Positions 2,399-24,754 of a stretch of DNA of 26,252 nucleotides are shown piece after piece. Source of the DNA: a virus (Duplodnaviria; Caudoviricetes); the IMG/VR virus record IMGVR_UViG_3300044624_000767, positions 1 through 26,252 of that record. One strand, written 5' to 3'. The position numbers and the translations under genes are program-made. The notes below the pieces were generated by a model, which searched no databases, was not told the origin of the DNA, and was given only the letters and a program-made list of their open reading frames with translations. Position 1 is the first letter of the stretch; every line of letters begins with the position of its first letter.

Positions 2399-4001
2399 TC
2401 CGTGGGCGCCGGAGGCGTTCAACACGATCCCGGGCTTTGACGCGATCGCGACGCGCGGCGACGCGATATGGAACGCGAACGCAGCGAAGCATGCGATCGG
2501 ATTCATCGAAGGTCTCTGCACCTTCGCGAAGGGAACATGGGCAGGGCAACCCTTCCGGCTACTTCCTTGGCAGCGCGGCGTAATCGGCAACCTGTACGGG
2601 TGGTCGCGCCCTGACGGGACCCGCCGATTCAGAGAATGCGGGATCTGGATTCCGCGAAAGAACGGGAAGACGGAGCTCCTCGCGCCGCTCGGCCTGTATC
2701 ACCTTCTCGCTGATGATGAGCCGACGCCCGAGGTCGTGTCGTTCGCTGCCGACCGAAAGCAGGCGAAGCTCGTGTTCGAGCGCGCGCGAACGATGATTCG
2801 CGCCGAGCCCGAGCTCGAGTCGCGCGTCGAGGTCTATCAGAATCGAATCGTCGCGCCGTCGCTCGGCGGCGTCTGGGCAGCGATGAGCAGCGACGCGCCG
2901 ACGGCGCACGGCCTGCACGTGTCGTTCGCCATCGGCGACGAGATCCACGCCATGGGGAATCGCCGAGAGTTGTGGGAAGCGATCCAGACTTCGATGGGCG
3001 CGCGCATGTCCCCGCTCCTCGTGTCGATCACGACGGCCGGAACGCTTCGAGAGTCGCTCGAATGGGATCAGTACGACTACGCATGCAAGGTCCGCGACGG
3101 CATCATCGAGAATCCCGCATATCTTCCGGTCGTCTACGAGGCGCCGGAGTCGATGGACTGGCGAACGCCCGAGGCGTGGATGACGGCGAATCCGTCGCTC
3201 GGAACGTCGCTTCAAGAGCGATGGATCGCCGAAGAGTGCAAGCGAGCCCAAGAGCAACCGTCCTACGAAACGCCGTTCCGAACGCTGCACCTGAATCAGC
3301 ACGTGACCGCCGACGTGCGATGGGTTCGCATGTCGGACTGGGATGACTGCATGAATGCGGTCGAAGACGACCGACTCATCGGCTTGCCGTGCTACCTCGG
3401 CATCGACCTCGGGGAAGTGAGCGACCTCACGAGCCTCACGGCCGTGTGGCTCGACGGGGACGAAGCGCACGTTCGATCATGGTCGTATGCGCCGGAAGAC
3501 GGCGCCGAGCGCAGACAGAAGCGAGACCGCGTGCCGTACCTTGATTGGTCGCGGCAGGGGTGGCTGAAACTTACGCCCGGCGACGCGACCGACTACGAGT
3601 TCCTTCGCGCCGAGATCAAGCGCCTCGTCGAGCGGCACAAGGTGACCGCCGTCGGGTATGACCCGAACAACGCCGGAGGACTGGCGCAGCAGTTGCAGAA
3701 CGACGGGCTCACGCTCAAGCGCGTGCCGCAGTCATTCCTCCACATGAGCGGTCCGACGAGACGATGGGAGGCGGCGATCGTCGGGAAGAAGATGCACCAT
3801 GACGGGAATCCGGTGCTCACGTGGGCGATGAGCAATACCGTCGTCGAGCTCGACTACAACAACAACCCCCGACCATCGAAGCGCCGATCGGTCGAGAAGA
3901 TCGACCCGGTTGTTGCGGGGATCATCGCTCTCGCGGTAGCGTTGGACGGCGCCCCGCTGATACGCTCGCCGTACGAGGACCGCGGTATCCAATGGCTCTA
4001 A
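2358..4001 (+). CDS. terL: Terminase large subunit
   Basis: LLPWQ, Walker A IPRKNGKT, Walker B IGDEIH, ITTAG coupling motif, nuclease motifs LGIDLG, YDP and KIDPVVA. Confidence 0.97.
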   Translation: MAKRRTSRATRPPDPWAPEAFNTIPGFDAIATRGDAIWNANAAKHAIGFIEGLCTFAKGTWAGQPFRLLPWQRGVIGNLYGWSRPDGTRRFRECGIWIPRKNGKTELLAPLGLYHLLADDEPTPEVVSFAADRKQAKLVFERARTMIRAEPELESRVEVYQNRIVAPSLGGVWAAMSSDAPTAHGLHVSFAIGDEIHAMGNRRELWEAIQTSMGARMSPLLVSITTAGTLRESLEWDQYDYACKVRDGIIENPAYLPVVYEAPESMDWRTPEAWMTANPSLGTSLQERWIAEECKRAQEQPSYETPFRTLHLNQHVTADVRWVRMSDWDDCMNAVEDDRLIGLPCYLGIDLGEVSDLTSLTAVWLDGDEAHVRSWSYAPEDGAERRQKRDRVPYLDWSRQGWLKLTPGDATDYEFLRAEIKRLVERHKVTAVGYDPNNAGGLAQQLQNDGLTLKRVPQSFLHMSGPTRRWEAAIVGKKMHHDGNPVLTWAMSNTVVELDYNNNPRPSKRRSVEKIDPVVAGIIALAVALDGAPLIRSPYEDRGIQWL

Positions 4002-7000
4002 GAGACCTCCTTCTTCGCATGCTTGGTTCGTCGGAAGTCCGTCAAGACTTCCAGGACAACACTCCCGTCGGCATGCCTGTGTCGTCGGGGATTCAGTCCT
4101 ACGTCGTCAACTGGGCAGAGACCGGGCGATTCATCACGCCGGAGATCGCGCGCTCGAGCCCAAGCGTCCACGCCTGCACGATGCTCATCAGTCAAAGCAT
4201 CGCGCGCATGGAATGGAAGGTATTCCTCGAGCGAGACGATGGGCACCTGCAGCCGACGCCGACGCATCCCCTCTATCGCCTGCTGAACACCGAGCCGAAC
4301 CCGTTCATGGGCGCGCTCACGTGGCGACAGAGCATGCTCCTCGACTGTCTCCTGTACGGGAACGGATACTCCTACATCGAGCGAGATCCGACCGGTCGAC
4401 CGATCCGCCTCGAGAAGTTGCGTCCCGACCTGATGCAAGCGATGCGCGCATCAGACAACTCGGTGATCTACTCCTACGCGGCGGGCACGACGGGCGCGCG
4501 CACATTCCCCGCATACGACATCTTCCACCTCATCGGTCCGAGTGCTGATGGTCTGCTCGGCGAGCCGCCGATCTACCTCGCTCGGCAGTTGATCGGTATC
4601 GAGATCGAAGCCGAGTCGTTTGTCGCGTCGTTCTTCCAGAACGGCGCGCGACCCGCGGGCGTGCTCGAGGTGCAGGGGACGCTATCGCCTGACGCATGGC
4701 AGCGACTTCGCCAGTCGTGGCAAGACATGCAGGGCGGCGCGCGCAACGCCGGACGAATCGCCGTCCTCGAAGCCGGATATCAGTTCAAGCCGATCACGAT
4801 CAATCCGGACGATGCGCAGCTCATCGAGCTGCGACGATATTGCCGCGAGCAGATCGCCGCCGCGTTCGGCGTCCCGCCGCACATGGTGGGCGATTCAACG
4901 AAGCAGTCGTACGCGTCTGCCGAGCAAGCCGACCTCGAGTTCACGAAGCACACTCTCGGAACGTGGGCGAGCCGACTCGAAGAGGAGTGCACGAGGAAAC
5001 TCCTTCGCGATGGCGATCGGATGCGAACGTCCATCAGTTTCGACGCGCTGACGCGCGGCGACTTGGGCGGCCGATTCTCCGCGTATGCGACCGCGTTGCA
5101 GCACGGGTTCCTGACGATCAACGAGGTCCGCGCTCGCGAAGGACTCGCGCCTGTTGATGGAGGGGAATCGCTCCGCGTGCCGCTCCAACTTGGGCCGCTG
5201 CCGACCGCGAAGAACAAGACGCCGACGCAGGCGGAACAGCAAGCCGCGGGCGTCGGGCAACTCCAAGCGATGACCGCGCTCGCACAAGCGGCCGCCTCCG
5301 GTGCCGTTCCTGCTGATGCCGCGAAGGGAATCATCGCCGCCGCGTTCCCCGCCATGCCGAGCGACGCCGTCGCCGGGATCGTCGAACCGCTCGCGCAAGC
5401 CGCCGAGGAAGCCGCCAAGGCGCCTCCCCCGGCAGAACCCCCTCCGGCCGCCCCGGCGCCGCCGGACGCCTCTGGGGGCGATTCTGCCCCGCCACCGACC
5501 GCGCCACCCGCGACCGACGGCGCGACGGTCGAGGGACGAAGTGCGCGAGACTGCGGAACCGGATCCGGCGGCTTCCAACCCGGCAACGAATGCGGAAAGG
5601 GAGAAGGGGGCGTCGGCGCTGATGCAAGCGGCGCGGGCGAAGACGGCAGCAGCGCGATCCCTGATGCAAGCGAACTGAAGACCGTCGGTCGCCTCGGCGG
5701 ATCGACGGGCGCCGTCCTTACCGAAGACGCTGATGGAAACCAGTACGTCGTGAAGGGCGGCAACAGCGCCGACCATATCCGCAGCGAAGCCGCGGCGAAC
5801 GACATCTACGCCGCGGCGGGGGTCCCGATCCCCGCGCATCGACTCGACGAAACGAACCCGGACGCGCCGAAGCAGATCACCAAGTTCGTCGAAGGAAAGC
5901 CGATCGGTGATCTAAAGGGCGAAGCGTTCGCCGCAGCAGCGGCCAAACTCTCCGAGAACTTCGCGACTGACGCGCTCCTCGCGAACTGGGACGTAGTCGG
6001 AATGAGTGGCGACAACGTGCTTGTCGCGAAGGATGGAACTCCGATGCGAGTCGACAACGGCGGCTCGCTCGCGTTCCGCGCGCAAGGCGGTCCGAAGACA
6101 TTCGGAGACAAGGTTGGCGAGCTCGAGTCGATGCGCACGAGCGATCAGGGGCGGCGCGTATTCGGCAAGCTCACGAACCCGCAGATCGCGTCGCAGATTC
6201 GCGACCTCGGCCGGCGTAGGGCGTCGATTCTGCGAGCGACGCCGAAGTCGTTGCGCGGGACGATCAGTGCTCGCCTCGACTACATGGAGCGATGGGCGAA
6301 GGAGAACGGCGCGCGATCAGCAGATGACGCGATCACCTTCGCCGTCGTTGACGATCGCACCATGCGCGACTGCGTCGAAGACAAGATCAAGATCCTCGTT
6401 GATGAAGGATACGAGCAGGATCAGGCGATCGCGATCGCGCTCGATTATTGCGGTGACGAGGACCGCGACTGCGGCACGGGCGCGGGCGGCTTCCAGCCCG
6501 GCAACGAATGCGGCAAGGGAGAAGGAAGCGGCGGCGAAGGCGGCGGAAGTGCAAAGCAGCCGGGCGAATGGGTGAACAAGAAAGGATCCGAGTACGCGGC
6601 CGCAGTGAAAACAGCCGGAGATGCGAAGCTCCATGCGTGCCTCGTTGCGCAGCATCAAGCCGATGGCCTGTCGAAGAAGGAAGCGATGACCGCGGCGACG
6701 CAGGAACTTCTGACGAGCAGCGCCGAATCCAAGGCGATCGCAGCGAAGGAGTTCGGCATCAACATGTCTGCGGAGGAGAATCAGGTCGAAGCCAAGTCGC
6801 TGAAGAACGACCCGGGCATCTACGCGAAAGAGAAGGCGATCGCGGCCGGATACATCACGGCAGCGCAGTCGGGCTCGCAGGCGAATGTTGCGCCGATCAA
6901 GGCAGATCCGACCGCGCCGCCGACGCAGCCGAAGGTAGTTCCAGTTGCGCCGACGGCGCCGAAGGATCCATCGAAGGAACCTGCGATCCAGCCGCCGAAG

Positions 7001-7645
7001 GATCAAGCGCAGTCGAGCAGCACTCCCGGCGTTCCGCCTCCAGGAATCCTCCCGACCGGACATGCTCAAGGATGGGTCGATCAGGAAAAGCCGAAACCGA
7101 CCGACGCGCAGTTGAAGGTGATGGCGAAAGTGCCGCTCGCGAAGGAAGCCGTAGAGGCATACTCGGGATCGTCGTATGAAGGCCTCAACGCGAAGTTGAG
7201 GCAGGGCGAATACCCCTACGGCGGATTCGGAGTCGTTGAAGGCATGTCACCAAAGCAAGCCGCAATGGTTGGCGCGCTCGACGTACTGACGCGAATCGAT
7301 CAGCGAGATCCGCCACCTGCGACCGTCTATCGCGGAGCGGGAGCAACCGTGGCACGAGAACTCGACAAGCTTGGCGTCGGCAACACTTGGACGGAACTCG
7401 GATATCTGAGTACCTCCACCGCCGTGAACACCGCATCGGGATTCGGCTCGAAACACGGTGGCGTGATGATGCGAATCCGAACGCGACAAGGCGTTTCGAT
7501 TCAGGACCTCAGCGGCTTGCCGGGCGAGCGCGAAGTGCTGCTACCTCGCGGCGCACGTTTCCGTGTTACGTCGAAGGAATGGCGATACTCGAAGGGCGTC
7601 GGTCCGCGACTGTATATCGACCTCGAACACATAGACACCAACTGA
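3992..7645 (+). CDS. HK97-family portal protein with long C-terminal extension (kinase-like and ADP-ribosyltransferase domains), ~1217 aa
   Basis: Probable start ATG 3992 (MALRDLL), overlapping the terL end. Portal motifs HPLYRLLNTEPNPFM, LLYGNGY, FFQNGARPAGVL, IAAAFGVPPHMVG and TINEVRAREGLAP run to about 5200. Then a Pro/Ala linker, a kinase-like region (~5675-6300) and an ART region (~7140-7642), all in one uninterrupted frame. Confidence 0.93.
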   Translation: MALRDLLLRMLGSSEVRQDFQDNTPVGMPVSSGIQSYVVNWAETGRFITPEIARSSPSVHACTMLISQSIARMEWKVFLERDDGHLQPTPTHPLYRLLNTEPNPFMGALTWRQSMLLDCLLYGNGYSYIERDPTGRPIRLEKLRPDLMQAMRASDNSVIYSYAAGTTGARTFPAYDIFHLIGPSADGLLGEPPIYLARQLIGIEIEAESFVASFFQNGARPAGVLEVQGTLSPDAWQRLRQSWQDMQGGARNAGRIAVLEAGYQFKPITINPDDAQLIELRRYCREQIAAAFGVPPHMVGDSTKQSYASAEQADLEFTKHTLGTWASRLEEECTRKLLRDGDRMRTSISFDALTRGDLGGRFSAYATALQHGFLTINEVRAREGLAPVDGGESLRVPLQLGPLPTAKNKTPTQAEQQAAGVGQLQAMTALAQAAASGAVPADAAKGIIAAAFPAMPSDAVAGIVEPLAQAAEEAAKAPPPAEPPPAAPAPPDASGGDSAPPPTAPPATDGATVEGRSARDCGTGSGGFQPGNECGKGEGGVGADASGAGEDGSSAIPDASELKTVGRLGGSTGAVLTEDADGNQYVVKGGNSADHIRSEAAANDIYAAAGVPIPAHRLDETNPDAPKQITKFVEGKPIGDLKGEAFAAAAAKLSENFATDALLANWDVVGMSGDNVLVAKDGTPMRVDNGGSLAFRAQGGPKTFGDKVGELESMRTSDQGRRVFGKLTNPQIASQIRDLGRRRASILRATPKSLRGTISARLDYMERWAKENGARSADDAITFAVVDDRTMRDCVEDKIKILVDEGYEQDQAIAIALDYCGDEDRDCGTGAGGFQPGNECGKGEGSGGEGGGSAKQPGEWVNKKGSEYAAAVKTAGDAKLHACLVAQHQADGLSKKEAMTAATQELLTSSAESKAIAAKEFGINMSAEENQVEAKSLKNDPGIYAKEKAIAAGYITAAQSGSQANVAPIKADPTAPPTQPKVVPVAPTAPKDPSKEPAIQPPKDQAQSSSTPGVPPPGILPTGHAQGWVDQEKPKPTDAQLKVMAKVPLAKEAVEAYSGSSYEGLNAKLRQGEYPYGGFGVVEGMSPKQAAMVGALDVLTRIDQRDPPPATVYRGAGATVARELDKLGVGNTWTELGYLSTSTAVNTASGFGSKHGGVMMRIRTRQGVSIQDLSGLPGEREVLLPRGARFRVTSKEWRYSKGVGPRLYIDLEHIDTN
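5546..5608 (+). repeat. Intragenic 21-codon repeat, copy 1 (RDCGTGSGGFQPGNECGKGEG)
   Basis: 20/21 aa identical to the copy at 6464-6526; nucleotide differences are mostly synonymous. Confidence 0.95.
6464..6526 (+). repeat. Intragenic 21-codon repeat, copy 2 (RDCGTGAGGFQPGNECGKGEG)
   Basis: Matches the copy at 5546-5608. Confidence 0.95.
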
Positions 7646-7845
7646 TGGCAACACCAAGCGACAATCCCGAAACGGACTCGAGCATCATCAACGAAACGAC
7701 GGATGATGCTGATGCGAACTTCCGACGCTACCTGCAGAACACGCTCGTCCTGCGAGACATCGCGCGCCGAATCAGCGAAGGCGTCGATCCAGAAGAAGCC
7801 GTAAGGCAGGCGAAGGCAGTTGCCGAAGGAAAGCCCGATGAGTGA
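7645..7845 (+). CDS. Small acidic hypothetical protein (66 aa), candidate immunity or partner protein
   Basis: TGATG coupling to the portal-ART stop (MATPSDNPETDSS...). Fills the gap up to the protease gene. Confidence 0.7.
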   Translation: MATPSDNPETDSSIINETTDDADANFRRYLQNTLVLRDIARRISEGVDPEEAVRQAKAVAEGKPDE

Positions 7846-8725
7846 TGGACATAAGCCAACGGCCGGAATGCGCGAAGAAGCCGAGCGCGGGCTCGCGTGG
7901 CGGCGCGAGTTCAATCGCGGCGGGACTGCCGTTGGGGTCGCGCGAGCGAGAGACATCGCGAACGGAAAGAACCTGTCGGACGACACCGTTCGACGGATGC
8001 ACTCCTACTTCGCGCGGCATGAAGTCGACAAGAAGGGCGAAGGATGGAGCCCCGGGGAACCCGGCTTCCCGTCGGCCGGACGAATCGCGTGGGCTTTGTG
8101 GGGCGGCGATCCGGGCAAGTCATTCGCGGAAACGATTACCACTCGACTCAAGAAGAACCAAGGAAGAACCGACATGAGCGCCATCGAAATCCGCACCCGC
8201 ACCGGAACCATCGAGCATCGCTGCCCGACCGGAGAGCGAGGCATCCTGCGCGGCTACGCCTCCACGTTTGACGAGCCGTACGACATGGGGCGCTTCGACG
8301 AGGTGATCGCGAGAAGCGCGTTCGCGCGAACCCTCCGCGAGCAGCCCGACGTAGTCGCACTCGTGAACCATGACAGCGCCAAGCCGATCGCCCGAACGAC
8401 TAACGGGTCGCTCCGATTGTTCGAGGACGAGCACGGGCTCGGGGTCGAAATCGAACCGATCGCGACAACCTACGCCGCCGACCTGATGGAAGCCGTCCGA
8501 GCGGGGGTCGTGAACGCGATGAGCTTCGGCTTCAACGTGAAGGCCGACCGATTCGAGCAGCGCAGCGGCAAGGTTACGCGAATCATCGAAGACGTCGATC
8601 TGCATGAAGTCTCGGTCGTTTCCTTCCCGGCGAACCCGGCGACGAATATCAAGCTCGACGCGCGAAGCTTCGAGCGATGGATCGAATCCTCGCGTCGTCG
8701 ATTCTTCCTCATCCCGCAGGATTGA
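7838..8725 (+). CDS. HK97-family prohead protease with ~112-aa N-terminal extra domain
   Basis: GAAGGA RBS before ATG 7838. Protease motifs LRGYASTF, FDEVI, ALVNH, EDEHGL, MSFGF and LHEVSVVSFPA from 8174 onward. Confidence 0.92.
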   Translation: MSDGHKPTAGMREEAERGLAWRREFNRGGTAVGVARARDIANGKNLSDDTVRRMHSYFARHEVDKKGEGWSPGEPGFPSAGRIAWALWGGDPGKSFAETITTRLKKNQGRTDMSAIEIRTRTGTIEHRCPTGERGILRGYASTFDEPYDMGRFDEVIARSAFARTLREQPDVVALVNHDSAKPIARTTNGSLRLFEDEHGLGVEIEPIATTYAADLMEAVRAGVVNAMSFGFNVKADRFEQRSGKVTRIIEDVDLHEVSVVSFPANPATNIKLDARSFERWIESSRRRFFLIPQD

Positions 8726-8758
8726 CCTGCGAACATCCTTCCCCATAGGCTGCGCACC

Positions 8759-9838
8759 ATGTTCGACGAGATGGAACTCGACCTTCCACGCGGCACGACC
8801 GCGACCGACCTCGACCATCTAGCCCGCAAGGCGATGATGCGAGGGCAGAACTCGCTCACGTACGCAGAAGCGCGCGCGCTTGGCGAAGCGACGGGCAAGG
8901 GCGTGACCGAGAACGGCTTCTACCTCGCGCCGAGCACCTTCTCGAAGGAGTGCTTCTACAAGATCCGATCGCTCAACCCGCTGCGAAAGCACGGCGCGCG
9001 AGTGTTCCGAAACGTCGGCTACAGCTTGCGCGTGCCGACCGTGTTCACCGACATCGGCGCGCGCAACACGATTCGCGACACCGACAACGCGGTGCCGATG
9101 ACGGAATACACGACGACGCCGAAGTTCTCGCTCCCGCTCGACGGAACGAGCGACAGTGACGGTGTCATCCTGTATCCGAAGCAGCAATACGTCTACTTCC
9201 GTGCGAGCATCGAACTCCTGCAGGACACGAGTGAGGACAACGGTCCCGCGCTCGAGCGACTGCTCGGAGACATGGCGGCGCAGGCGTTCGTTGCAAGCGA
9301 AGTCGAGCAGATGCTTCGCGGCGCGCTCGCGCCCGATCCGATGAGCGACAAGCGCATGGGCCTCTCGCTGCAGTTGACTGATTCCGCGCGATTGAGCAGC
9401 GCCATCGGTACGGGACTTGGCGCGTTCACCGCCCTCGAGCTCGCGCAGATCATCGAGCGATTCAGCAGCGGTCGATACGCGCGCGCGTTCCATTGGTGGC
9501 ATCCGCGCATGCTCGGAATCCTCGCGACGAGCTTCGACGCCATGTTCTTCGGCACGAACTTCGACAAAGCGAAGGACGACACGCTGATGATGCTCGCCGG
9601 GCGGCCGCTCTATCTGGAGCCGCAGATCCTCGCAGCAGGCACCGACTTCATCGCCGGGGCGAAGGCGGGCTACGTCATCGACCCGACCGCATACGTCATC
9701 GCGGAAAGCGGACCGCCGGTCGCGCTGCGACGCCTCGACGAACTCGGCGCCGCGAACGGGCAAGTCCTGTTCCAAGCGAGCCGCCGCATCGACTTTGCCC
9801 TCGCCGACGTGGATGCGGCGTTGGCGATCGTTCTCTGA
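8759..9838 (+). CDS. Divergent HK97-fold capsid-like protein (minor capsid paralog)
   Basis: Motifs parallel to the downstream MCP: RALGE..GFYLAP, ASIELLQD, LAGRPLY, RRLDELGAANGQVLFQASRRID. Confidence 0.8.
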   Translation: MFDEMELDLPRGTTATDLDHLARKAMMRGQNSLTYAEARALGEATGKGVTENGFYLAPSTFSKECFYKIRSLNPLRKHGARVFRNVGYSLRVPTVFTDIGARNTIRDTDNAVPMTEYTTTPKFSLPLDGTSDSDGVILYPKQQYVYFRASIELLQDTSEDNGPALERLLGDMAAQAFVASEVEQMLRGALAPDPMSDKRMGLSLQLTDSARLSSAIGTGLGAFTALELAQIIERFSSGRYARAFHWWHPRMLGILATSFDAMFFGTNFDKAKDDTLMMLAGRPLYLEPQILAAGTDFIAGAKAGYVIDPTAYVIAESGPPVALRRLDELGAANGQVLFQASRRIDFALADVDAALAIVL

Positions 9839-9878: not shown

Positions 9879-11165
9879 ATGGACGACACCGCACCCGCTG
9901 CCGCCCCCGCCCCCGAAGGCGGCGACCAGTACCGCACCCTCATCGAGGAGATGGGCAAGCTCTACGAGCGCATGCGCGCCCTCGTCGAGAAGGCCAACCG
10001 CCAGGGCGAGATGAGCTCCGACGAGGAAGAGGAACTCGCTCGCATGCAGAAGAAGTACGATTCGATGCGCAGCCTCAAGGAGCGCAACGTCACGCTCATG
10101 CGGATGGCCGCCGAGCACCGCGAGTCCGCTCCGGCTCCGACCGTCAACGTCGGCGTCGCTCGCCAGTCGCAGAAGACCTCGCACTTTGCGCAGACCAACG
10201 AGTACCGCGACGCGTTCATGGCCTACCTCAAGGGGCCCCGCTTCGTGGGTGACCTCGAGCGCCGCGCGCTGAGCGAAGGCACCGACGCCGACGGCGGCTA
10301 CCTGCCGTCGCAGGACTTCTACTCGACCCTCGTGAAGGTGCTCGAGCAGCAGGTGATCTACCGCCGCATCGCGAACGTGATGAGCCTCGGCGCGTTCAAG
10401 ACGAACATCGCGCTCGAGAGCTCGATCGCGACCGCGTCGTGGGGCGCCGAAGCGGCGGCCATCAGCGAGACGACCCCGCAGTTCGGGCAGCTCGTTCTGC
10501 AGCCGCGGCGCCTGAGCGCCATCGTCAAGTCGAGCGTCGAACTCATCGAGGACGCCCCCGCTCGCGGTCCCGGCTTCTCGGTCGAGTCGATCGTCGCCGA
10601 TCAGCTCGGCCGCGCGTTCGCGCTCGCTGAGGAGAACGCGTTCTCCACGGGCGTCGCCGCGTCGAATCAGCCCGTCGGAATCTTCACCTACACGAGCTCG
10701 GGCATCAGCGACGGCAAGACGTGCGCCTCGACGAGCGCCATCACGGCGAACGAGCTGCTCGACTTCGTGTACTCGCTGCCCCGCCAGTACCGCGAGCAGA
10801 AGTCGACGTGCATCGTCACGAGCGACGCCGTGCTCGCCCTGATCCGCAAGCTCGCGAGCCCCGGCACGAACACGTTCCTGTCCTACCTGTGGCAGCCGTC
10901 GTTCCAGCAGGGCGAGCCGGATCGCCTGTCGGGCATCCCGATCTACGCGACCCAGTACGCGCCGTCCATCGCGGCGGGCGCTCGCGTCGCGGTGATCGGC
11001 GACTTCTCGCGCTACCACATTGGCGTGCGATCGGGCATGAGCGTGAAGGTGCTGCGCGAGCTCTACGCGGGCAACGGGCAGATCGGCTTCCAAGCGATCG
11101 CTCGCCTCGACGCGGGATGCTCGATCTACAACGCGTTCCGCTACCTCCGCATGGCAGTGTCCTGA
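9879..11165 (+). CDS. Major capsid protein (HK97 family)
   Basis: AAGGA RBS and ATG 9879. Coiled-coil delta-like N-terminus, RALSEGTDADGGYLP, SVELIED, YLWQPS..GEPDRLSGIPI, GDFSRY, LRELYAGNGQIGF. Strongly C/G-ending codons. Confidence 0.96.
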   Translation: MDDTAPAAAPAPEGGDQYRTLIEEMGKLYERMRALVEKANRQGEMSSDEEEELARMQKKYDSMRSLKERNVTLMRMAAEHRESAPAPTVNVGVARQSQKTSHFAQTNEYRDAFMAYLKGPRFVGDLERRALSEGTDADGGYLPSQDFYSTLVKVLEQQVIYRRIANVMSLGAFKTNIALESSIATASWGAEAAAISETTPQFGQLVLQPRRLSAIVKSSVELIEDAPARGPGFSVESIVADQLGRAFALAEENAFSTGVAASNQPVGIFTYTSSGISDGKTCASTSAITANELLDFVYSLPRQYREQKSTCIVTSDAVLALIRKLASPGTNTFLSYLWQPSFQQGEPDRLSGIPIYATQYAPSIAAGARVAVIGDFSRYHIGVRSGMSVKVLRELYAGNGQIGFQAIARLDAGCSIYNAFRYLRMAVS

Positions 11166-13029: not shown

Positions 13030-13442
13030 TGGCAGTCCTCGAGCAAGCCATCTACACGCTGATGAACACGAAGGGCGTAACCGACCTCGTGCCGCTCGCG
13101 TCGATCACGCCGGACGTTCGCCGCAAAGACGGAACGCTCCCCGCGCTCGTCTATCGCATCGGATACGGCGAGCCGATCAAGACGCTCGCCGGGCCGCACG
13201 CCTCGCTCACGCGGACCGACGTGACGATCACGGCATACGCGACTACGCGCCTTGCGTGCCGGAACATCCTCAACGCCTGCGGGGTTGTATTCGACGGGTA
13301 CAGCGGGGAAACTGCCGGAGTGGTCATCCGCGGCCTGACGCTAGATTCGTTCGAGACGGCATACTTCGAGCCGATCGCGGGCGAGAACCAAGGCGTCTAC
13401 GCGGCGGCCCTGACGATCCGCGTGATGCACGAGACTCTCTGA
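13029..13442 (+). CDS. Tail terminator / tail completion protein (gp17/DUF3168-like)
   Basis: LEQAIYTL, LPALVYRI, size and position. Confidence 0.75.
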   Translation: MAVLEQAIYTLMNTKGVTDLVPLASITPDVRRKDGTLPALVYRIGYGEPIKTLAGPHASLTRTDVTITAYATTRLACRNILNACGVVFDGYSGETAGVVIRGLTLDSFETAYFEPIAGENQGVYAAALTIRVMHETL

Positions 13443-13900
13443 TGCCGCTCCTCTCGCAAACGACCTACGTGAAGTTCGGCGCGACGTTCGATACGTCGGG
13501 CGGTGGGCTCACTGTGGCGCAAGTCGTTTCGTGGTCGTTCAATCCCGCAACGACGCGAAATGAGTTCATCGCCAACGACCTGGACACGACCACGGTATCC
13601 CCGAAGCTTGCGACGCTCGACTACGGGACGCTCGAGCTGCAAGTGAATATCGACGGCAACGCAAAGACGCAGACGACCGCGTTGTGGAGTGACTATCAGG
13701 GGCAGCGATTGACCTATGCCGTCGCGATCACGTGCCCGGACAATCCGGCCGGAGACCGCTATCAGCAGTTCTCGTTCGACGGCATCCTTCGCGATACGTC
13801 ACGCGAAGCGGCCGTCGATACGCAGCTCACGCAGACGCTCACGATCCGAGTGATGACGTACATCACGACGAAATACCTCAGCGCGTTGATCTTCGACTGA
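13442..13900 (+). CDS. Divergent tail-tube-like protein (paralog 1)
   Basis: TGATG coupling (MPLLSQTT). TRNEFIANDL, LDYGTLELQVN and FSFDG..AAVDTQLTQTLTIRV parallel the next gene. Confidence 0.65.
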   Translation: MPLLSQTTYVKFGATFDTSGGGLTVAQVVSWSFNPATTRNEFIANDLDTTTVSPKLATLDYGTLELQVNIDGNAKTQTTALWSDYQGQRLTYAVAITCPDNPAGDRYQQFSFDGILRDTSREAAVDTQLTQTLTIRVMTYITTKYLSALIFD

Positions 13901-13940: not shown

Positions 13941-14339
13941 ATGGCAGCGAACAGTTCATACAACACGATCATCAAGAAGGGCGCGACGACTCTCGGAGAC
14001 ATCACGGCGATCAGCCTGTCCGGCATCACGAGGACGGAGATCGACGTGACCGCGCTGACCGACACCGCAAAGACCTACCTCATGGGCACCGTGGATTCCG
14101 GCACCGTGGAGGTGAGCTTCAACTACGACGACACGCTCGACGACTACATCCCGGCGAGCGCCGAAACGACATCGTCCTCATGGTCGATCGTCTATCAGGT
14201 CGGCGCGAGCAAGACGCAGACCGTGTCCTTCAACGCCTTCATCCAGTCCTTCAGCATCGAAGCGGGTGTCGATGCCGCGCTCACGGGAAACCTGACGCTC
14301 CGCATCGATGGCGTCGTGACCTTCGCAGCCCCGGCGTAA
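13941..14339 (+). CDS. Major tail tube protein
   Basis: TRTEIDVTALTD, DSGTVEVSFNYD, VSFNAFIQSF..GVDAALTGNLTLRIDG. Own RBS; followed by the chaperone genes. Confidence 0.85.
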   Translation: MAANSSYNTIIKKGATTLGDITAISLSGITRTEIDVTALTDTAKTYLMGTVDSGTVEVSFNYDDTLDDYIPASAETTSSSWSIVYQVGASKTQTVSFNAFIQSFSIEAGVDAALTGNLTLRIDGVVTFAAPA

Positions 14340-19097: not shown

Positions 19098-19775
19098 ATG
19101 TCACTACAGATCCGACGCGGCCTCGAAGCGAATCGCACCTTCATCGCTGATGCAGGCGAGCCGCTATGGGTCACTGATACGGCGCGCCTGTTCATCGGCG
19201 ACGGAACGACGACCGGAGGAATCGCGGTGCAGGCGATCCCCGCGGGAACTGCCGGGGGAGACCTGCAAGGCACGTATCCGAACCCGACGGTCCACAAGAT
19301 CCACACGCACAACGTGCAGTCGGGGACGCCGTCGGAGAAGGACGTGCTGCAGTGGGAAACGGCGCACACGAGATGGAGCCGGAAGTACATCGACCTGTCG
19401 TACGTCGAGTCGTGGCTCACGGCCGGGACCGTCGCACTGAGCGCCAAGAAGTTCACGACGATCGTGACGCTTACGCTGACCGAAGGAACGTGGCTCGTCA
19501 CGGGCAACGTGATGACCGTCGGCGGCGGTGACGCCAATGCAGCCGAGTTCCAGTTGATCGACGCGGCGAACGTGCAACATGGAGGCGGTGCGATCAGCGC
19601 AGTGATCGATTACGGCGCGGCGAGTACGAGCTTCACGACGATCATCACGACGGCGGGCTCGCTCGCGATTACCTTGCAAGGCATCGGATGGGATGGGTAC
19701 GTCGAAGCAGTTCACATATCGCCATCCCAAGAAGTGCCGCGCGTCACGGGTATCACCGCCATCCGAATCGGATGA
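19098..19775 (+). CDS. Tail fiber/spike-like protein with Mtd N-terminal-like domain
   Basis: AAGGAG RBS. LQIRRG..GEPLWVTDT.RLFIGDG is the Mtd_N-type motif; GGDLQGTYPNPTV fiber motif; beta-rich C-terminus. Confidence 0.75.
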   Translation: MSLQIRRGLEANRTFIADAGEPLWVTDTARLFIGDGTTTGGIAVQAIPAGTAGGDLQGTYPNPTVHKIHTHNVQSGTPSEKDVLQWETAHTRWSRKYIDLSYVESWLTAGTVALSAKKFTTIVTLTLTEGTWLVTGNVMTVGGGDANAAEFQLIDAANVQHGGGAISAVIDYGAASTSFTTIITTAGSLAITLQGIGWDGYVEAVHISPSQEVPRVTGITAIRIG

Positions 19776-19806
19776 CATTCACGCACCCCATTGCTACGAT
19801 GAGGAA

Positions 19807-20010
19807 ATGACGAGAGAGGCAGACAACACCGTGAAGCTATCGCTTCGCGATTGGCTCGCGATCGGCGCGCTCGCGCTCACGATCATGGGTTCCGTGCTAG
19901 GGGCATTCCTGCATCACGATCGACTGTTGATGCAGCTCGTCACGCAGCAGCAAGCGGCGAACTCTCGCCTCGACAAGATCGAAAGCAAACTCGAAAGGAG
20001 ACTGCCATGA
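19807..20010 (+). CDS. Small membrane protein with C-terminal coiled coil (lysis-cassette type)
   Basis: One hydrophobic segment (WLAIGALALTIMGSVLGAFL) followed by RLDKIESKLE. Confidence 0.65.
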   Translation: MTREADNTVKLSLRDWLAIGALALTIMGSVLGAFLHHDRLLMQLVTQQQAANSRLDKIESKLERRLP

Positions 20011-20207
20011 GCATCGTGAACGCACTGAAGGACAAGTCGTGGAAGACGACGGGCGCGGGTGTCGCGGCGATCCTCGTCGCTGGCGGCGCAGCACTCACCG
20101 CGCTCACCGACGCGAACCCGCAGACGCAGCCCGATTGGGCGGCGCTCATCGCGGCGATCATCGCGGGCGTCGGCCTGATCTTCGCCAAGGACAACGCGAA
20201 GGCCTGA
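20007..20207 (+). CDS. Putative holin (two TM segments)
   Basis: AAGGAG RBS and ATGA overlap. SWKTT..two hydrophobic helices..GLIFAKD. Confidence 0.65.
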   Translation: MSIVNALKDKSWKTTGAGVAAILVAGGAALTALTDANPQTQPDWAALIAAIIAGVGLIFAKDNAKA

Positions 20208-20208
20208 C

Positions 20209-20400
20209 GTGTATGCCGCGATCCGAGCGATCCTTGATTCGTTGCTCGCATGGGTGCATCGCCTCGTCGAGCGAAAGGGTCAAGCGTCGGACGCGCCTCG
20301 CGATCCCGACATGCTTCGCCGTGCTGGCGCTCGCATTCGCGAATGGATGCACCCGAGCGGTACTCGTGAGCGAGAGCAGTCCGATCAGAACGGGACCTGA
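20209..20400 (+). CDS. Hypothetical protein, possible i-spanin-like
   Basis: GTG start right after the holin-like stop. Amphipathic/hydrophobic N-terminus; overlaps a lipoprotein ORF in the +1 frame. Confidence 0.45.
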   Translation: MYAAIRAILDSLLAWVHRLVERKGQASDAPRDPDMLRRAGARIREWMHPSGTREREQSDQNGT

Positions 20401-20521
20401 TATGCGCGGTCGCGTCTACGTGCGAAGCGCGGATGGGTGGCAACTCTCCGAGAACGCCGTAACCATTCCGGAAGGGTGGTACTGCGTTCCGCCGTCCTAC
20501 GTGGAAAGCGATACCAAGTGA
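20213..20521 (+). CDS. Putative lipoprotein, possible o-spanin-like (start uncertain)
   Basis: KRRTRLAIPTCFAVLALAFANG-C lipobox-like signal followed by a ~57-aa mature region. Stop overlaps the next GTG start. Confidence 0.5.
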   Translation: MPRSERSLIRCSHGCIASSSERVKRRTRLAIPTCFAVLALAFANGCTRAVLVSESSPIRTGPDMRGRVYVRSADGWQLSENAVTIPEGWYCVPPSYVESDTK

Positions 20522-22086
20522 CGCTCGCTCCCGCGTCGTGCTGCTGCGATCAGGAACCCGTAGGACCGTGCGCGCCGCTCGAAACGTATGGGCCGCTCAC
20601 GATCTGCCTGAAGAACAACGCGGGGACGGAATGGAAGTACAAGCTCGAATGGACGGGCGCATGCGACTGCGCCGTTGACAATATCAACGACTGCCCGATT
20701 CCGACCGCATCGGCGCCGACCTACGGAGGCGGATGCTCGATTGTGCAAGGGTACTACGCGTGCGACTGCCCGTTCTCGGGACTGACATGCACGGAACAGA
20801 GCATCACGGCGCAAAGACAGATGCAGGGGTGCTACGCGCTCCCGTTCACGACGAAGGGGCAATACTCGAGCGCCGGGTACTACATCACGCCGGAAGGAAA
20901 CCCGACGACGCTCATAGCGCCGACGGCGGGCATCACCGTGCAGTGGGCGGTACCGATCGAAGAGCGATTCAGTTTCGACAAACAGACCTACGGAACGTGC
21001 GAGCAGTGCGAAACGTGGACGCTGATTCAAGACACGACGGGACTGCAGATGCCGTATCGCGCGCGCTTCTCGGGGCCGCCGTACATCACGAATGGTCCGC
21101 CCGTATGGACGATCCGAAAGCAGACGACGGGAAGCGTCGCAAGCCGATGGGAAATCACCTCGACGGCGTTCAACATCCGCAACTCGAGCGGCGTCATCGT
21201 CTACACGATCGCGCTCGCAGGGCAGACGCTCGGGTCCTTGTTCACGGCGATTGATACGCAGACCGCGGCGCCGGTCGTGCTTGTGAAGCAGTACACGCCG
21301 ATCGGGGTCTACAACGCTGACCTGATGCCGGCAACCTCGCTCGAGCCGCGTGCGCAGTCGCCTGTATTCAGCGGGCTCACGACGCAGACCGTTCGCTTGT
21401 TCGACCTCGCATCGGGCGAGCAGCGACGAATGGCGCTTCCGACCGTCACGCCAGTACCAGATCCGATCCCGGGTGCGGCCGGAGCCGTCAATCCGTGGGG
21501 ATCGTTTCAGTGGCAGTTCGACCACGCGTTCGGGCAAACGACGGCGCCATATACGAACGCGGCGTACAGCGTATTCGCGGCAGACGTCGGCTACTCAGAG
21601 GCAACGGTCGCGGCATTCTGCGGTGGATTCGCGCACTCGTGGGACTGGGATTGGATTCAGAACTTCTACGACGTGCAATGCGCGAACTGGACGCCGGGGG
21701 AGAATCCGCCAGGAAGCCCCCAAATCGGATCCTTCACGCGCACGACTGATCCGACCTCGTGCAACGGATGCCCGTTCGGTGTTGAGAGCATTCCGTGCTC
21801 GTCATATGGCGGTTACACGTTCGAGGACCTTCTGCCGCTGAAGGCGTTCTACGTGCTCGGCACGGAAGGCACGGGGAAAGTGACCTCTGCGGATATGTGT
21901 CTGCAGCAATACGGAGGGACGCGCAGCTACTGGGGATGCGATCCATTCGAAGGTGAAGCAGACTGCTGCTGCCCAGAAGTCAACGGAGACAACTGCTCGT
22001 CGGCCTTCCGCCTATTCTCGGGATGCAGGGCCGTGACCTCGTCGTTTGGGCAGTTCGCGGAGTACGTGTTCTCGGTGTCGAGGTAA
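20518..22086 (+). CDS. Cysteine-rich putative virion/receptor-binding protein (~522 aa)
   Basis: GTGA overlap; N-terminal SCCC. About 27 Cys counted, clustered at both ends; rich in Thr, Gly and aromatic residues. Confidence 0.7.
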   Translation: MTLAPASCCCDQEPVGPCAPLETYGPLTICLKNNAGTEWKYKLEWTGACDCAVDNINDCPIPTASAPTYGGGCSIVQGYYACDCPFSGLTCTEQSITAQRQMQGCYALPFTTKGQYSSAGYYITPEGNPTTLIAPTAGITVQWAVPIEERFSFDKQTYGTCEQCETWTLIQDTTGLQMPYRARFSGPPYITNGPPVWTIRKQTTGSVASRWEITSTAFNIRNSSGVIVYTIALAGQTLGSLFTAIDTQTAAPVVLVKQYTPIGVYNADLMPATSLEPRAQSPVFSGLTTQTVRLFDLASGEQRRMALPTVTPVPDPIPGAAGAVNPWGSFQWQFDHAFGQTTAPYTNAAYSVFAADVGYSEATVAAFCGGFAHSWDWDWIQNFYDVQCANWTPGENPPGSPQIGSFTRTTDPTSCNGCPFGVESIPCSSYGGYTFEDLLPLKAFYVLGTEGTGKVTSADMCLQQYGGTRSYWGCDPFEGEADCCCPEVNGDNCSSAFRLFSGCRAVTSSFGQFAEYVFSVSR

Positions 22087-22814: not shown

Positions 22815-23030
22815 ATGACCATCTACACCGCCGAGCTCGAGACCGAACGATTCACCTTCCGCGGAACGGGCCTCACCGCCGCGAGCGCCAAGGGCGCGCT
22901 CGTCAAGGGCCTCGCGAAGCATGCCAAGGATTACGGCCTCGCCTCGAACTGGTGGAAGCCGTACGAGTGCGACATGTTCATCCACCCCGCGTTCGTCGGC
23001 ACGTGCACTCGCGATAACGAAATCCTCTAA
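22815..23030 (+). CDS. Hypothetical protein (71 aa)
   Basis: GGAG RBS; first gene after promoter 1; typical codon bias. Confidence 0.75.
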   Translation: MTIYTAELETERFTFRGTGLTAASAKGALVKGLAKHAKDYGLASNWWKPYECDMFIHPAFVGTCTRDNEIL

Positions 23031-23060: not shown

Positions 23061-23981
23061 ATGCCGACCATCGCCACCATGTCCACCGCGCTCCCGACCC
23101 TCCCCTCTGTCAAGACGCTCACCTTCGGCGTCGAAATCGAAACGGGAATCCCGTACTCGACGGGCCTCAACGTCGGCGGCTACCACAACGGACGCGTCGT
23201 TCCGAACATGCCCGAGCGCGGCATCGTGAGCGGCAAGTGGAAGGCGTCCTCCGATGGAAGCATCAACGTCGCCAACATGCAAGGCGTCGAGTTCGTGTCG
23301 CCTGTCCTCCGCGGCGCCGACGGCCTCGACAACGTCGCGATCGCCGTCGAGCGGATTCACGCGATGGGCGCCAAGGTGAACCGCACGTGCGGCGTGCACG
23401 TGCACGTGGCGTTCCCGACCAATGACCTCGCCGCCGTTCGTCGCCTCGTGCACCTCGTCGCGCATTGGGAGTCCGCGCTCTACGCAACGACGGGCACGAA
23501 GTCGCGCGAGCAAAACTCCTACTGCCGTTCGATCAAGACCCCGAGCATGCGCGCCGCGCGATACGGTTCGATGGGCGACGTGCGCACCGCCGTCATGTCG
23601 AACCGCTACCACACGCTCAACCTCATGCCGATCCTCACGGGCTCGCAGCCGACCGTCGAGTTTCGCGTGTTCAGCGGAAGCGTGAACGCCAAGAAGATCG
23701 TCGCGTGGACGATGCTCGCTCTCGCGATCGTCGAAGCCGCGCTCAACGGCCACCGCGCCAAGGCGTTCGACATGCCCGAAACGAGCGTCGAGCGCGAGTG
23801 CGGCGAAGGTCGCGGCGAGCGACTCGTGAAAGCGATGCTCAACGACCTGTTCGTGTGGAACGGGAAGAGCGCGACCCGCGGCCAATACGGGCACGAAACC
23901 TACACCCATGAGTTCATGCGGAAGCAGCTCGGCCGCATGGCAAAGAAGTACGACCTGATCGACGCCACCGAAATCGACTAA
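23061..23981 (+). CDS. Putative amidoligase (Amidoligase_2 / COOH-NH2 ligase, glutamine-synthetase fold)
   Basis: TFGVEIE, DGS, EFVSP, CGVHVHV, RYHTLN, TVEFR. Confidence 0.9.
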   Translation: MPTIATMSTALPTLPSVKTLTFGVEIETGIPYSTGLNVGGYHNGRVVPNMPERGIVSGKWKASSDGSINVANMQGVEFVSPVLRGADGLDNVAIAVERIHAMGAKVNRTCGVHVHVAFPTNDLAAVRRLVHLVAHWESALYATTGTKSREQNSYCRSIKTPSMRAARYGSMGDVRTAVMSNRYHTLNLMPILTGSQPTVEFRVFSGSVNAKKIVAWTMLALAIVEAALNGHRAKAFDMPETSVERECGEGRGERLVKAMLNDLFVWNGKSATRGQYGHETYTHEFMRKQLGRMAKKYDLIDATEID

Positions 23982-24019
23982 TCGACACCCATCACCTCAT
24001 CACGAAAGGATACGACACC

Positions 24020-24754
24020 ATGTGCGGACTATTCGCCCTGTTCACCTCGACCCCGGACGCCACCATCTGCCCCCGCTCGGCATGCCGCCTCGCCGCGGCG
24101 CAAGTCTCCCGCGGGCATCACGCGTGGGGCATCGCGTGGCTCGACACCGTCGGCATCATCCGGTCCTACCGCGCGATCGGCCCCGTGACCGACTCGCTCG
24201 AGATCATCGCCGACATCGCCAACGAAGCGACCGCCCTGATCGGGCATACCCGATGGGCGACGCACGGCGCTGCCGATGACCTCGCGTGCGCCCATCCGTT
24301 CACGTGCGGCGGCGGCTTCCTCGCGCACAACGGCATCATCCCGTCGCACGAACGCATCGCTCGCGAGCACGGACTGCTCTGCACGAGCGAGTGCGACTCC
24401 GAAGTCCTCGCTCGACTCGTCGAATATCACGGCGTCACGGGCCCCGCGGGCGCCTTCCGCGCGGCGATCAACACCGTCCCGCACGGCGCGCCGCTCGCGA
24501 CGCTCGCCCTGTTCGGGGGCACCGACCCGCGCATCGTCTACGCCCGACGCGGCAACCCGCTCGCCCGTACGACGATGACGCACGGCAAGGCGACGCTCAC
24601 GCTCCTTGGCTCGCACGTTGCCGCCGCGCCGTCGATCGACGATGACACCGTGACCGTGCGACACCTGTTCCGACGGGGGGCACCGATCACCCTCACGCTC
24701 GACCGTACCGCGCCGACCATGAAGAACGTCCGCGGCTCAACCCTGTTCGCCTGA
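24020..24754 (+). CDS. Class II (Ntn) glutamine amidotransferase
   Basis: MCGLF with catalytic Cys2, RG, GHTRWATHG, HPF, HNG, DSEV. AAGGA RBS. Confidence 0.9.
   Translation: MCGLFALFTSTPDATICPRSACRLAAAQVSRGHHAWGIAWLDTVGIIRSYRAIGPVTDSLEIIADIANEATALIGHTRWATHGAADDLACAHPFTCGGGFLAHNGIIPSHERIAREHGLLCTSECDSEVLARLVEYHGVTGPAGAFRAAINTVPHGAPLATLALFGGTDPRIVYARRGNPLARTTMTHGKATLTLLGSHVAAAPSIDDDTVTVRHLFRRGAPITLTLDRTAPTMKNVRGSTLFA

Follow-up and report, generated by a model that had tools for sequence, protein, structure and literature searches.

We report that the portal gene of a tailed phage encodes, in one open frame, a capsid portal fused to two predicted enzymes. The gene lies in a 26,252-nucleotide stretch of viral DNA (Duplodnaviria; Caudoviricetes; IMG/VR record IMGVR_UViG_3300044624_000767), which we call the window. 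The window is the head-tail module of the phage, with genes for terminase, portal, protease, two capsid-family proteins, connectors and tail. The product of the portal gene comprises an HK97-family portal, a protein-kinase-like domain and an ADP-ribosyltransferase (ART) domain. We lean towards a reading in which the kinase and ART are loaded into the head on the portal, cut free by the prohead protease and ejected to modify host proteins. The question addressed is how enzymes fused to MuF proteins or portals travel from their structural anchor to the host cell, and this gene supplies exact predicted cut sites, a matching protease and predicted fragment sizes.

The fusion gene and its enzyme domains

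The fusion occupies a single open frame from the ATG at 3992 to the TGA at 7645 and encodes 1,217 amino acids (Table 1). The original prediction, which described a frame of about this length with a complete HK97 portal core, was correct on this point, although its end coordinate of 7845 was too far and took in a separate downstream open reading frame (ORF). The portal region matches Pfam PF04860 at residues 58-384 (E 1.8e-101) and TIGR01537 above the cut-off. Residues 57-411 align with residues 61-419 of the 424-residue HK97 portal; this covers almost the whole HK97 portal, so the extension begins where that portal stops. Both the full-length profile match and the position of the gene between those for terminase and protease fit an HK97-family portal. 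In an AlphaFold model, the ordered core of the portal part is separated by a short disordered stretch from a three-helix domain (about 414-476), which is also present on portals without enzyme cargo (P0272, P0273). An E-x-R motif occurs within the first 25 residues in 7 of 10 portal fusions.

The fusion is real and does not reflect misassembly. In a comparison made on assembled contigs, those of four out of four runs compared have no indel or joint across the gene, and the listed substitutions within it introduce no stop. One run, possibly the source, covers positions 3000-9000 in one piece, and a run not flagged as the source carries 4633-6879 unbroken, bridging the portal-kinase junction. 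The same architecture occurs in five other protein clusters with a portal identity of 81-96%, and all close relatives with a complete gene retain the fusion. We also considered a programmed frameshift that would yield free portal, but no X-XXY-YYZ slippery heptamer is present in any of six genes.

The kinase-like domain (residues 552-773) has no match in Pfam, PHROG or NCBIfam. Its AlphaFold model has a predicted local distance difference test score (pLDDT) of 96.8, and the structural matches of this model are protein-kinase-like folds. The best are CtkA (Z 12.9, root-mean-square deviation 3.6, 196 residues aligned), PI4K-II (Z 12.4), RIO (Z 12.1) and HipA (Z 10.8). All 60 sequences compared have D667 and D688, and 59 of the 60 have K588, E599 and N675. 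On the basis of this modelled two-lobe fold with its conserved Lys, Glu and two Asp, we assign the region to the protein-kinase-like superfamily, with invariant residues at catalytic positions, in agreement with the original prediction. As to the HipA/CtkA family proper, sequence searches gave no Pfam match for the query itself, a HipA_C match (E 0.041) in one homologue, and an ESM Atlas cluster with 46% HipA_2 at rank 29. A PDB sequence search with the kinase alignment matched only ARTs, through full-length rows, and was uninformative on the kinase.

The domain occurs in 4,573 clusters at 50% identity (E up to 0.001), which points to a large phage kinase family that lacks a curated model. Among the 120 best full-length matches, a hand count gave MuF in 51 and a portal in 15. 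Among cultured phages, the domain is found in the gene after the portal in Gordonia phage GodonK, and in phage fHe-Yen8-01 it belongs to a protein that the depositor annotated as 'phage particle associated'.

At the C-terminus, PF03496 (residues 1051-1196) and PF01129 both match above their cut-offs, and six out of six relatives show the R, STS and ExE motifs without change. By these profile and motif criteria, the domain is classified as an R-S-E (Alt/VIP2-type) ART, so that the earlier assignment as an ART stands. ExE motifs point to arginine targets, and the motif suggests arginine as the residue modified by this ART. It is the most diverged enzyme domain, with 53-71% identity where the portal has 80-97%.

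Directly behind the fusion, in the window and in five related lineages, is an ORF of 66 amino acids that was found nowhere else among the fetched loci and proteins. An ESM Atlas search with this ORF returned no nameable family. It occupies the position that is typical of MuF-toxin immunity genes, and by analogy it may protect the producing cell.

Tags, predicted cut sites and exchangeable cargo

Both enzyme modules open with the motif D-C-G-T-G-x-G-G-F-Q-P-G-N-E-C, which we call the Cys-Gly tag, right after an arginine (R519 and R825). An additional E-G-R516 is located just upstream of tag 1. The repeated tags that had been noticed earlier correspond to a 73-nucleotide direct repeat, 85% identical, at positions 5546 and 6464. 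The number of nonsynonymous polymorphisms per site (pN) is well below the synonymous value (pS) in the kinase and in both tags, which are thus under purifying selection.

HK97-type proteases cut after a basic residue. Closely related capsid proteins have [ED]-x-R at the scaffold junction in 12 of 12 cases, including E-R-R125/A in the window, and the predicted sites in the fusion match, at the level of sequence, this capsid cleavage motif of the phage itself, as would be expected of prohead-protease cargo. An arginine stands directly before the tag in 32 of 38 tags of the window's own type in phages with S78 proteases.

We scanned viral contigs for two tag variants and estimate that they occur in 360 and 250 stretches, respectively. 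The x-F-C variant is preceded by R, N, K, L, Y or F. This residue is the same in 456 of 476 within-contig pairs from 40 multi-tag contig groups, while permutation gave a mean of 170 and a maximum of 233 (0 of 5,000 permutations reached 456). Sharing is also high at P3 (287 versus 88 expected), and is near chance at P2 (52 versus 41) and at more distant positions. Given that P3 is contig-specific while P2 and the distant positions are not, simple recent duplication of the tags is a poor explanation. A head protease was present in the fetched DNA for 36 of 121 groups. The majority pre-tag residue fits the protease type in all 36, a count that overstates the number of independent cases, as the groups span only five protease lineages. 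The pairings are R with HK97 S78 proteases (17 groups), N with DUF2213-like proteases (13), K with divergent S78 or XkdF proteases (5; one of these groups also had two R tags) and F or Y with Mu-I-like proteases (1). Moreover, [TV]xN is 3.4-fold enriched in N-type protease-scaffolds. These sequence patterns make it quite likely that the prohead protease cuts the enzymes off the portal inside the procapsid, at the arginines before the tags.

The cargo varies among related portals, as the original prediction had proposed to check. Behind the same tag, portals that are 49-73% identical in the core have a RelA/SpoT-like domain, a metallopeptidase with an HExxH motif, a divergent ART-like domain (assigned from its motifs), a coiled coil or a MuF-like remnant. 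Some related portals have almost no cargo. The RelA/SpoT-like assignment, for P0248, derives from motif reading and weak XopAD-type matches. Protein P0007 has a portal that is only 31% identical, yet carries the same kinase (62%) and ART (51%). In P0008 and P0009, the tag-kinase-tag-ART cassette occurs without a portal. Cargoes are scattered over a quick portal tree, in which long branches were flagged and which we used only to show this scatter. At least 27 distinct tagged HK97-type portal ORFs are present among the fetched loci. Judged from these comparisons, portal cargo is polymorphic and swappable.

The fusion has two effector domains in one head-module polypeptide, like polyvalent proteins, and a variable C-terminal enzyme on a conserved head carrier, like MuF polymorphic toxins. 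As stated in the original prediction, there is no recognizable MuF gene in the head module: no MuF domain or family was matched among 25 ORFs of the 26-kb window with Pfam or among 21 with PHROGs. Other contigs reach about 32 kb, so that this negative result holds for the window only.

Some further tagged or related proteins were observed. P0273, a close relative of the portal, has an AAA_33 P-loop domain after an Arg and has no Cys tag. Tagged head polyproteins at L176:7633-12081, L196:2172-7154, L170:8191-12933 and L207:4493-8926 carry Acb1/2H-like, ART-PolyVal, topoisomerase IB, intein and metallopeptidase domains. In a prophage of the cultured Singulisphaera acidiphila DSM 18658 (L360:5870-8650), a portal of about 900 amino acids combines a Cys-Gly tag with a long peptide repeat and has a cargo domain at its C-terminus. 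Prophages that bear the tag thus occur in Planctomycetota, the group of this strain. The tag pattern was found in 13 stretches of genome contigs, of which 7 are labelled Planctomycetota; this is a mere hint on the host. When tagged loci were searched by motif for a second type of header, a single case appeared, which was uninformative.

Fate of the cargo

Portals are built from 12 copies of their subunit. The innermost part of portals is their crown (PMC4493910), and in T4, GFP on the portal C-terminus sits inside the prohead, where it hindered expansion (PMC10893049). The head protease of T4 trims Alt, a packaged protein that is injected (PMC9026906), and in SPN3US the portal itself is processed at a P3-x-P1 motif (PMC10052503), according to the accessible text of these papers. 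Together, these precedents lead to the scheme that we propose. Twelve fusion chains would nucleate the procapsid, with the cargo inside on the inward-facing end of the portal. The prohead protease would then cut at the arginines before the two Cys-Gly tags, and the predicted products, at up to 12 copies apiece, are a shortened portal (about 53 kDa), a kinase fragment (about 32 kDa) and an ART fragment (about 41 kDa). The freed kinase and ART would be ejected with the DNA and could modify host proteins early, in host takeover or anti-defence.

The original prediction had regarded the portal as the device that loads the enzymes. The enzyme folds and motifs, the variable cargo and the inward-facing C-terminus agree with this idea. 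However, the portal is not the sole carrier, given the MuF proteins and the portal-free P0008 and P0009 described above, the core idea was already published, and a release step was lacking. The portal stays in the capsid, so that without a cut the cargo could not leave. Twelve cargo copies would fill about 1-1.6% of the head if a diameter of 50-60 nm is assumed; therefore, volume is no obstacle.

Several observations weigh against this scheme. The protease profiles used for the 36 groups, themselves not independent, were seeded partly from the same loci. Six of the 38 tags of the window's type in S78 phages have no adjacent arginine, nor does the tag of the S. acidiphila prophage portal. Around S78 proteases, the enrichment of E-x-R is weak at 1.7-fold, and N-type scaffolds show it too (1.5-fold). 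Only 28 of 247 kinase-bearing proteins have a Cys tag within 120 residues upstream. In some portals, a tag-like R-D-x-x-G-R-F forms the end of the chain and is not followed by cargo; given this and the presence of the tag on portal-free proteins, the job of the tag stays ambiguous. The tail genes of the window look non-contractile by Pfam and PHROG matches, and such cargo is described as rarer in siphoviruses in the accessible text of Iyer 2022 (PMC9503650). Delivery of MuF toxins is still treated as a hypothesis in the MuF-toxin literature, as far as its available text goes.

Another explanation is that the Cys-Gly tag or a short leader is itself a packaging signal, and that the link to the portal arose incidentally when neighbouring late genes were joined. 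We regard this as possible, if somewhat doubtful, and it is compatible with cleavage and injection. It would account for the portal-free P0008, P0009, P0016 and P0125, in which a leader of 25-48 amino acids is followed by an Arg, the tag and a kinase or kinase-ART, and for single contigs in which as many as 11 pattern matches are spread over portals, proteases, MuF proteins and small ORFs that stand alone. However, all close relatives with a complete gene keep the fusion, the many tagged portal ORFs counted above indicate that portals are a favoured carrier, and the tag has no known binding partner.

The cargo might instead be cut off and act in the producing cell, late in infection or in a lysogen, as a toxin or in superinfection exclusion, or it might be discarded like scaffold fragments. 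In favour of this, some products of prohead proteases are cleared from the head (PMC9026906), and the 66-amino-acid ORF takes a toxin-immunity position like that of the small ORF beside Bxa, a MuF toxin with toxicity in bacteria (PMC11699363), according to the accessible text of both papers. Nonetheless, we consider such a fate unlikely. Folded domains of 32-41 kDa would not easily exit the shell, a portal fusion would be a costly way to make a cytoplasmic enzyme, and the homologous kinase domain in fHe-Yen8-01 belongs to a protein annotated as particle-associated.

It is still less probable that the cargo remains on the virion portal for head assembly or DNA organization, for instance through the modification of phage proteins. 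Portals can accommodate some fusion at the C-terminus, as in T4 gp20-GFP, and twelve copies would take up little of the assumed head volume. By contrast, close relatives with short tails or quite different enzymes argue against an assembly role, as do the divergence of the ART, the highest among the enzyme domains, and the protease-matched sites before each module. Finally, an assembly artefact or a lost stop codon that joined separate genes is virtually inconceivable, and we count it as already refuted: although other phages encode the same cassette as a gene of its own, contigs of other runs keep the frame intact, no slippery heptamer is present, and the fusion is found in at least six clusters down to 81% portal identity as well as in a distant portal clade.

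Beyond ejection of the kinase and ART in this phage, we tentatively suggest a more general arrangement, which seems quite conceivable but less secure: a portable unit of cut site and Cys-Gly tag with which many unrelated phages string swappable enzymes on portals, proteases and MuF proteins. The pre-tag residue would be retuned to the head protease, and the freed tag would mark the piece for retention and ejection; here, 12 copies each of a kinase from an uncharacterized phage family and an ART would come from the essential portal of a small siphovirus. The pattern offers a sequence rule with which to find head cargo and to read protease specificity from genomes.

Neighbouring genes and known systems

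Table 1. Features of the portal fusion gene and the genes that follow it (positions in the window)
Feature	Position	Strand	Support or remarks
Portal-kinase-ART fusion gene, 1,217 aa	3992..7645	+	Full-length relatives P0002-P0007; loci L003, L004, L006/7, L014, L016
N-terminal 17 aa ending E-V-R, possible propeptide	3992..4042	+	Predicted cleavage
HK97-family portal core, aa 18-400	4043..5191	+	Profile matches, HK97 alignment, AlphaFold model
Three-helix accessory domain, aa about 414-476	5231..5419	+	pLDDT about 90; also in P0272, P0273
Predicted protease site 1 (E514-G-R516 and/or R519), then Cys-Gly tag 1 (D520-C521...C534)	5531..5596	+	
Kinase-fold domain, aa 553-775: Gly loop 569-573, K588, E599, D667, N675, D688	5648..6316	+	
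Small two-cysteine module 'DCV', also on portal tails without enzymes	6359..6454	+	
Predicted protease site 2 (E823-D-R825), then Cys-Gly tag 2	6458..6514	+	
Conserved domain aa 855-965, travels with this ART	6554..6886	+	Without ESM Atlas match
Predicted ART, R-S-E type (R1114, S1140-T-S1142, E1179-x-E1181)	7109..7642	+	Pfam and PHROG
66-aa acidic ORF overlapping ART stop codon, candidate immunity protein	7645..7845	+	
HK97 prohead protease (S78) with extra N-terminal module	7838..8725	+	Pfam, PHROG, NCBIfam
Second, divergent capsid-family gene, E-A-R/A at residue 39	8759..9838	+	
Major capsid protein, scaffold (delta) junction E-R-R125/A	9891..11165	+	

The runs that hold the window are lake or freshwater metagenomes in 24 of 24 listed cases, and no RNA runs are among those listed. 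A scan for promoters and terminators gave results at chance level only. An ESM Atlas query with residues 850-970, around the conserved domain before the ART, returned no usable match.

The prohead protease gene is two genes from the portal fusion. Its N-terminal module (7838-8176) is phrog_2859-like and occurs as a fusion to portals in other phages (P0334, P0335 and P0021). We class it with the DCV and three-helix modules as a mobile head module. The second capsid-family gene precedes the major capsid gene in the window, L003, L004, L007 and L016. It has a short leader that ends in a conserved Arg before A-L-G-E, with E-x-R in 4 of 5, and its product could be a minor capsid or vertex protein that is processed by the same protease.

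Two adjacent tail-tube-like genes (13442-13897 and 13941-14336) both match phrog_158. An amidoligase (PF12224) lies beside a class II glutamine amidotransferase at 23061-24754, with 22815-23030 just before. Directly before the small terminase, the region 3-1922 contains two ParB-like ORFs (one with a weak Pfam match) and a C5 cytosine methyltransferase. The region 19098-22086 has a tail protein with an Mtd_N domain and a long cysteine-rich ORF (about 20521-22086) that has no family match; this is a possible receptor-binding region.

The predicted kinase resembles the atypical kinases CtkA, HipA and PI4K-II in fold (Z 10.8-12.9) and in its catalytic set of Lys, Glu, Asp...Asn and Asp. However, it is only 12-15% identical to them and has seven residues between the catalytic Asp and Asn. 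The polyvalent-protein kinase of Iyer 2017, by its accessible description, loses the C-terminal subdomain and has an insert between His and Asp. By contrast, the fusion kinase in its model keeps four C-terminal helices, which form a helical C-lobe, and has the catalytic loop N-W-D; compared by description, it does not belong to that group.

The idea of portal-borne effectors is already in print. The accessible text of Iyer 2017 (PMC5512222) and Iyer 2022 (PMC9503650) describes portal and MuF proteins to which ART, 2H, Nudix and PBECR domains are attached, and regards these domains as probably injected. As in the present fusion, these enzymes are carried on a portal, MuF or head protease and are predicted to be packaged and injected. 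Their processing is ascribed mainly to built-in metallopeptidases, with assemblin-like domains only at C-termini, and the description, supplements aside, contains no repeated tag or protease-matched site. A literature search that left most subscription papers and the Iyer supplements outside listed no publication that deals with the tag, with protease-matched release sites or with this kinase family.

In the accessible text of Jamet 2017 (PMC5576092), Zhang 2012 (PMC3482391) and the Bxa paper (PMC11699363), MuF polymorphic toxins resemble the fusion in that their carrier belongs to the head module, their C-terminal toxin can be exchanged and may be an ART or RelA-like domain, and a small ORF follows immediately. 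By contrast, the carrier here is the essential portal, with 12 copies (1-2 for SPP1 gp7), and the fusion lacks a MuF domain and has two enzymes in series with internal predicted cut sites.

Like the cargo proposed here, T4 Alt is an ART that is packaged in the head, shortened at a brief P3-x-P1 motif by the prohead protease gp21, which also processes internal proteins, and then injected. Among the SPN3US and phiKZ ejection-protein systems, the portal of SPN3US is cut as well (PMC9026906, PMC10052503). According to the available text, the T4 and SPN3US/phiKZ proteins are separate proteins whose targeting propeptide is removed, with cleavage after Glu. In the present case, the portal serves as carrier, Arg is the last residue of the predicted site, and a conserved tag would stay on the released piece. 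Within the literature covered, the arrangement of a tag plus a predicted cut site on a portal appears to be the element that is new over published portal-effector fusions.

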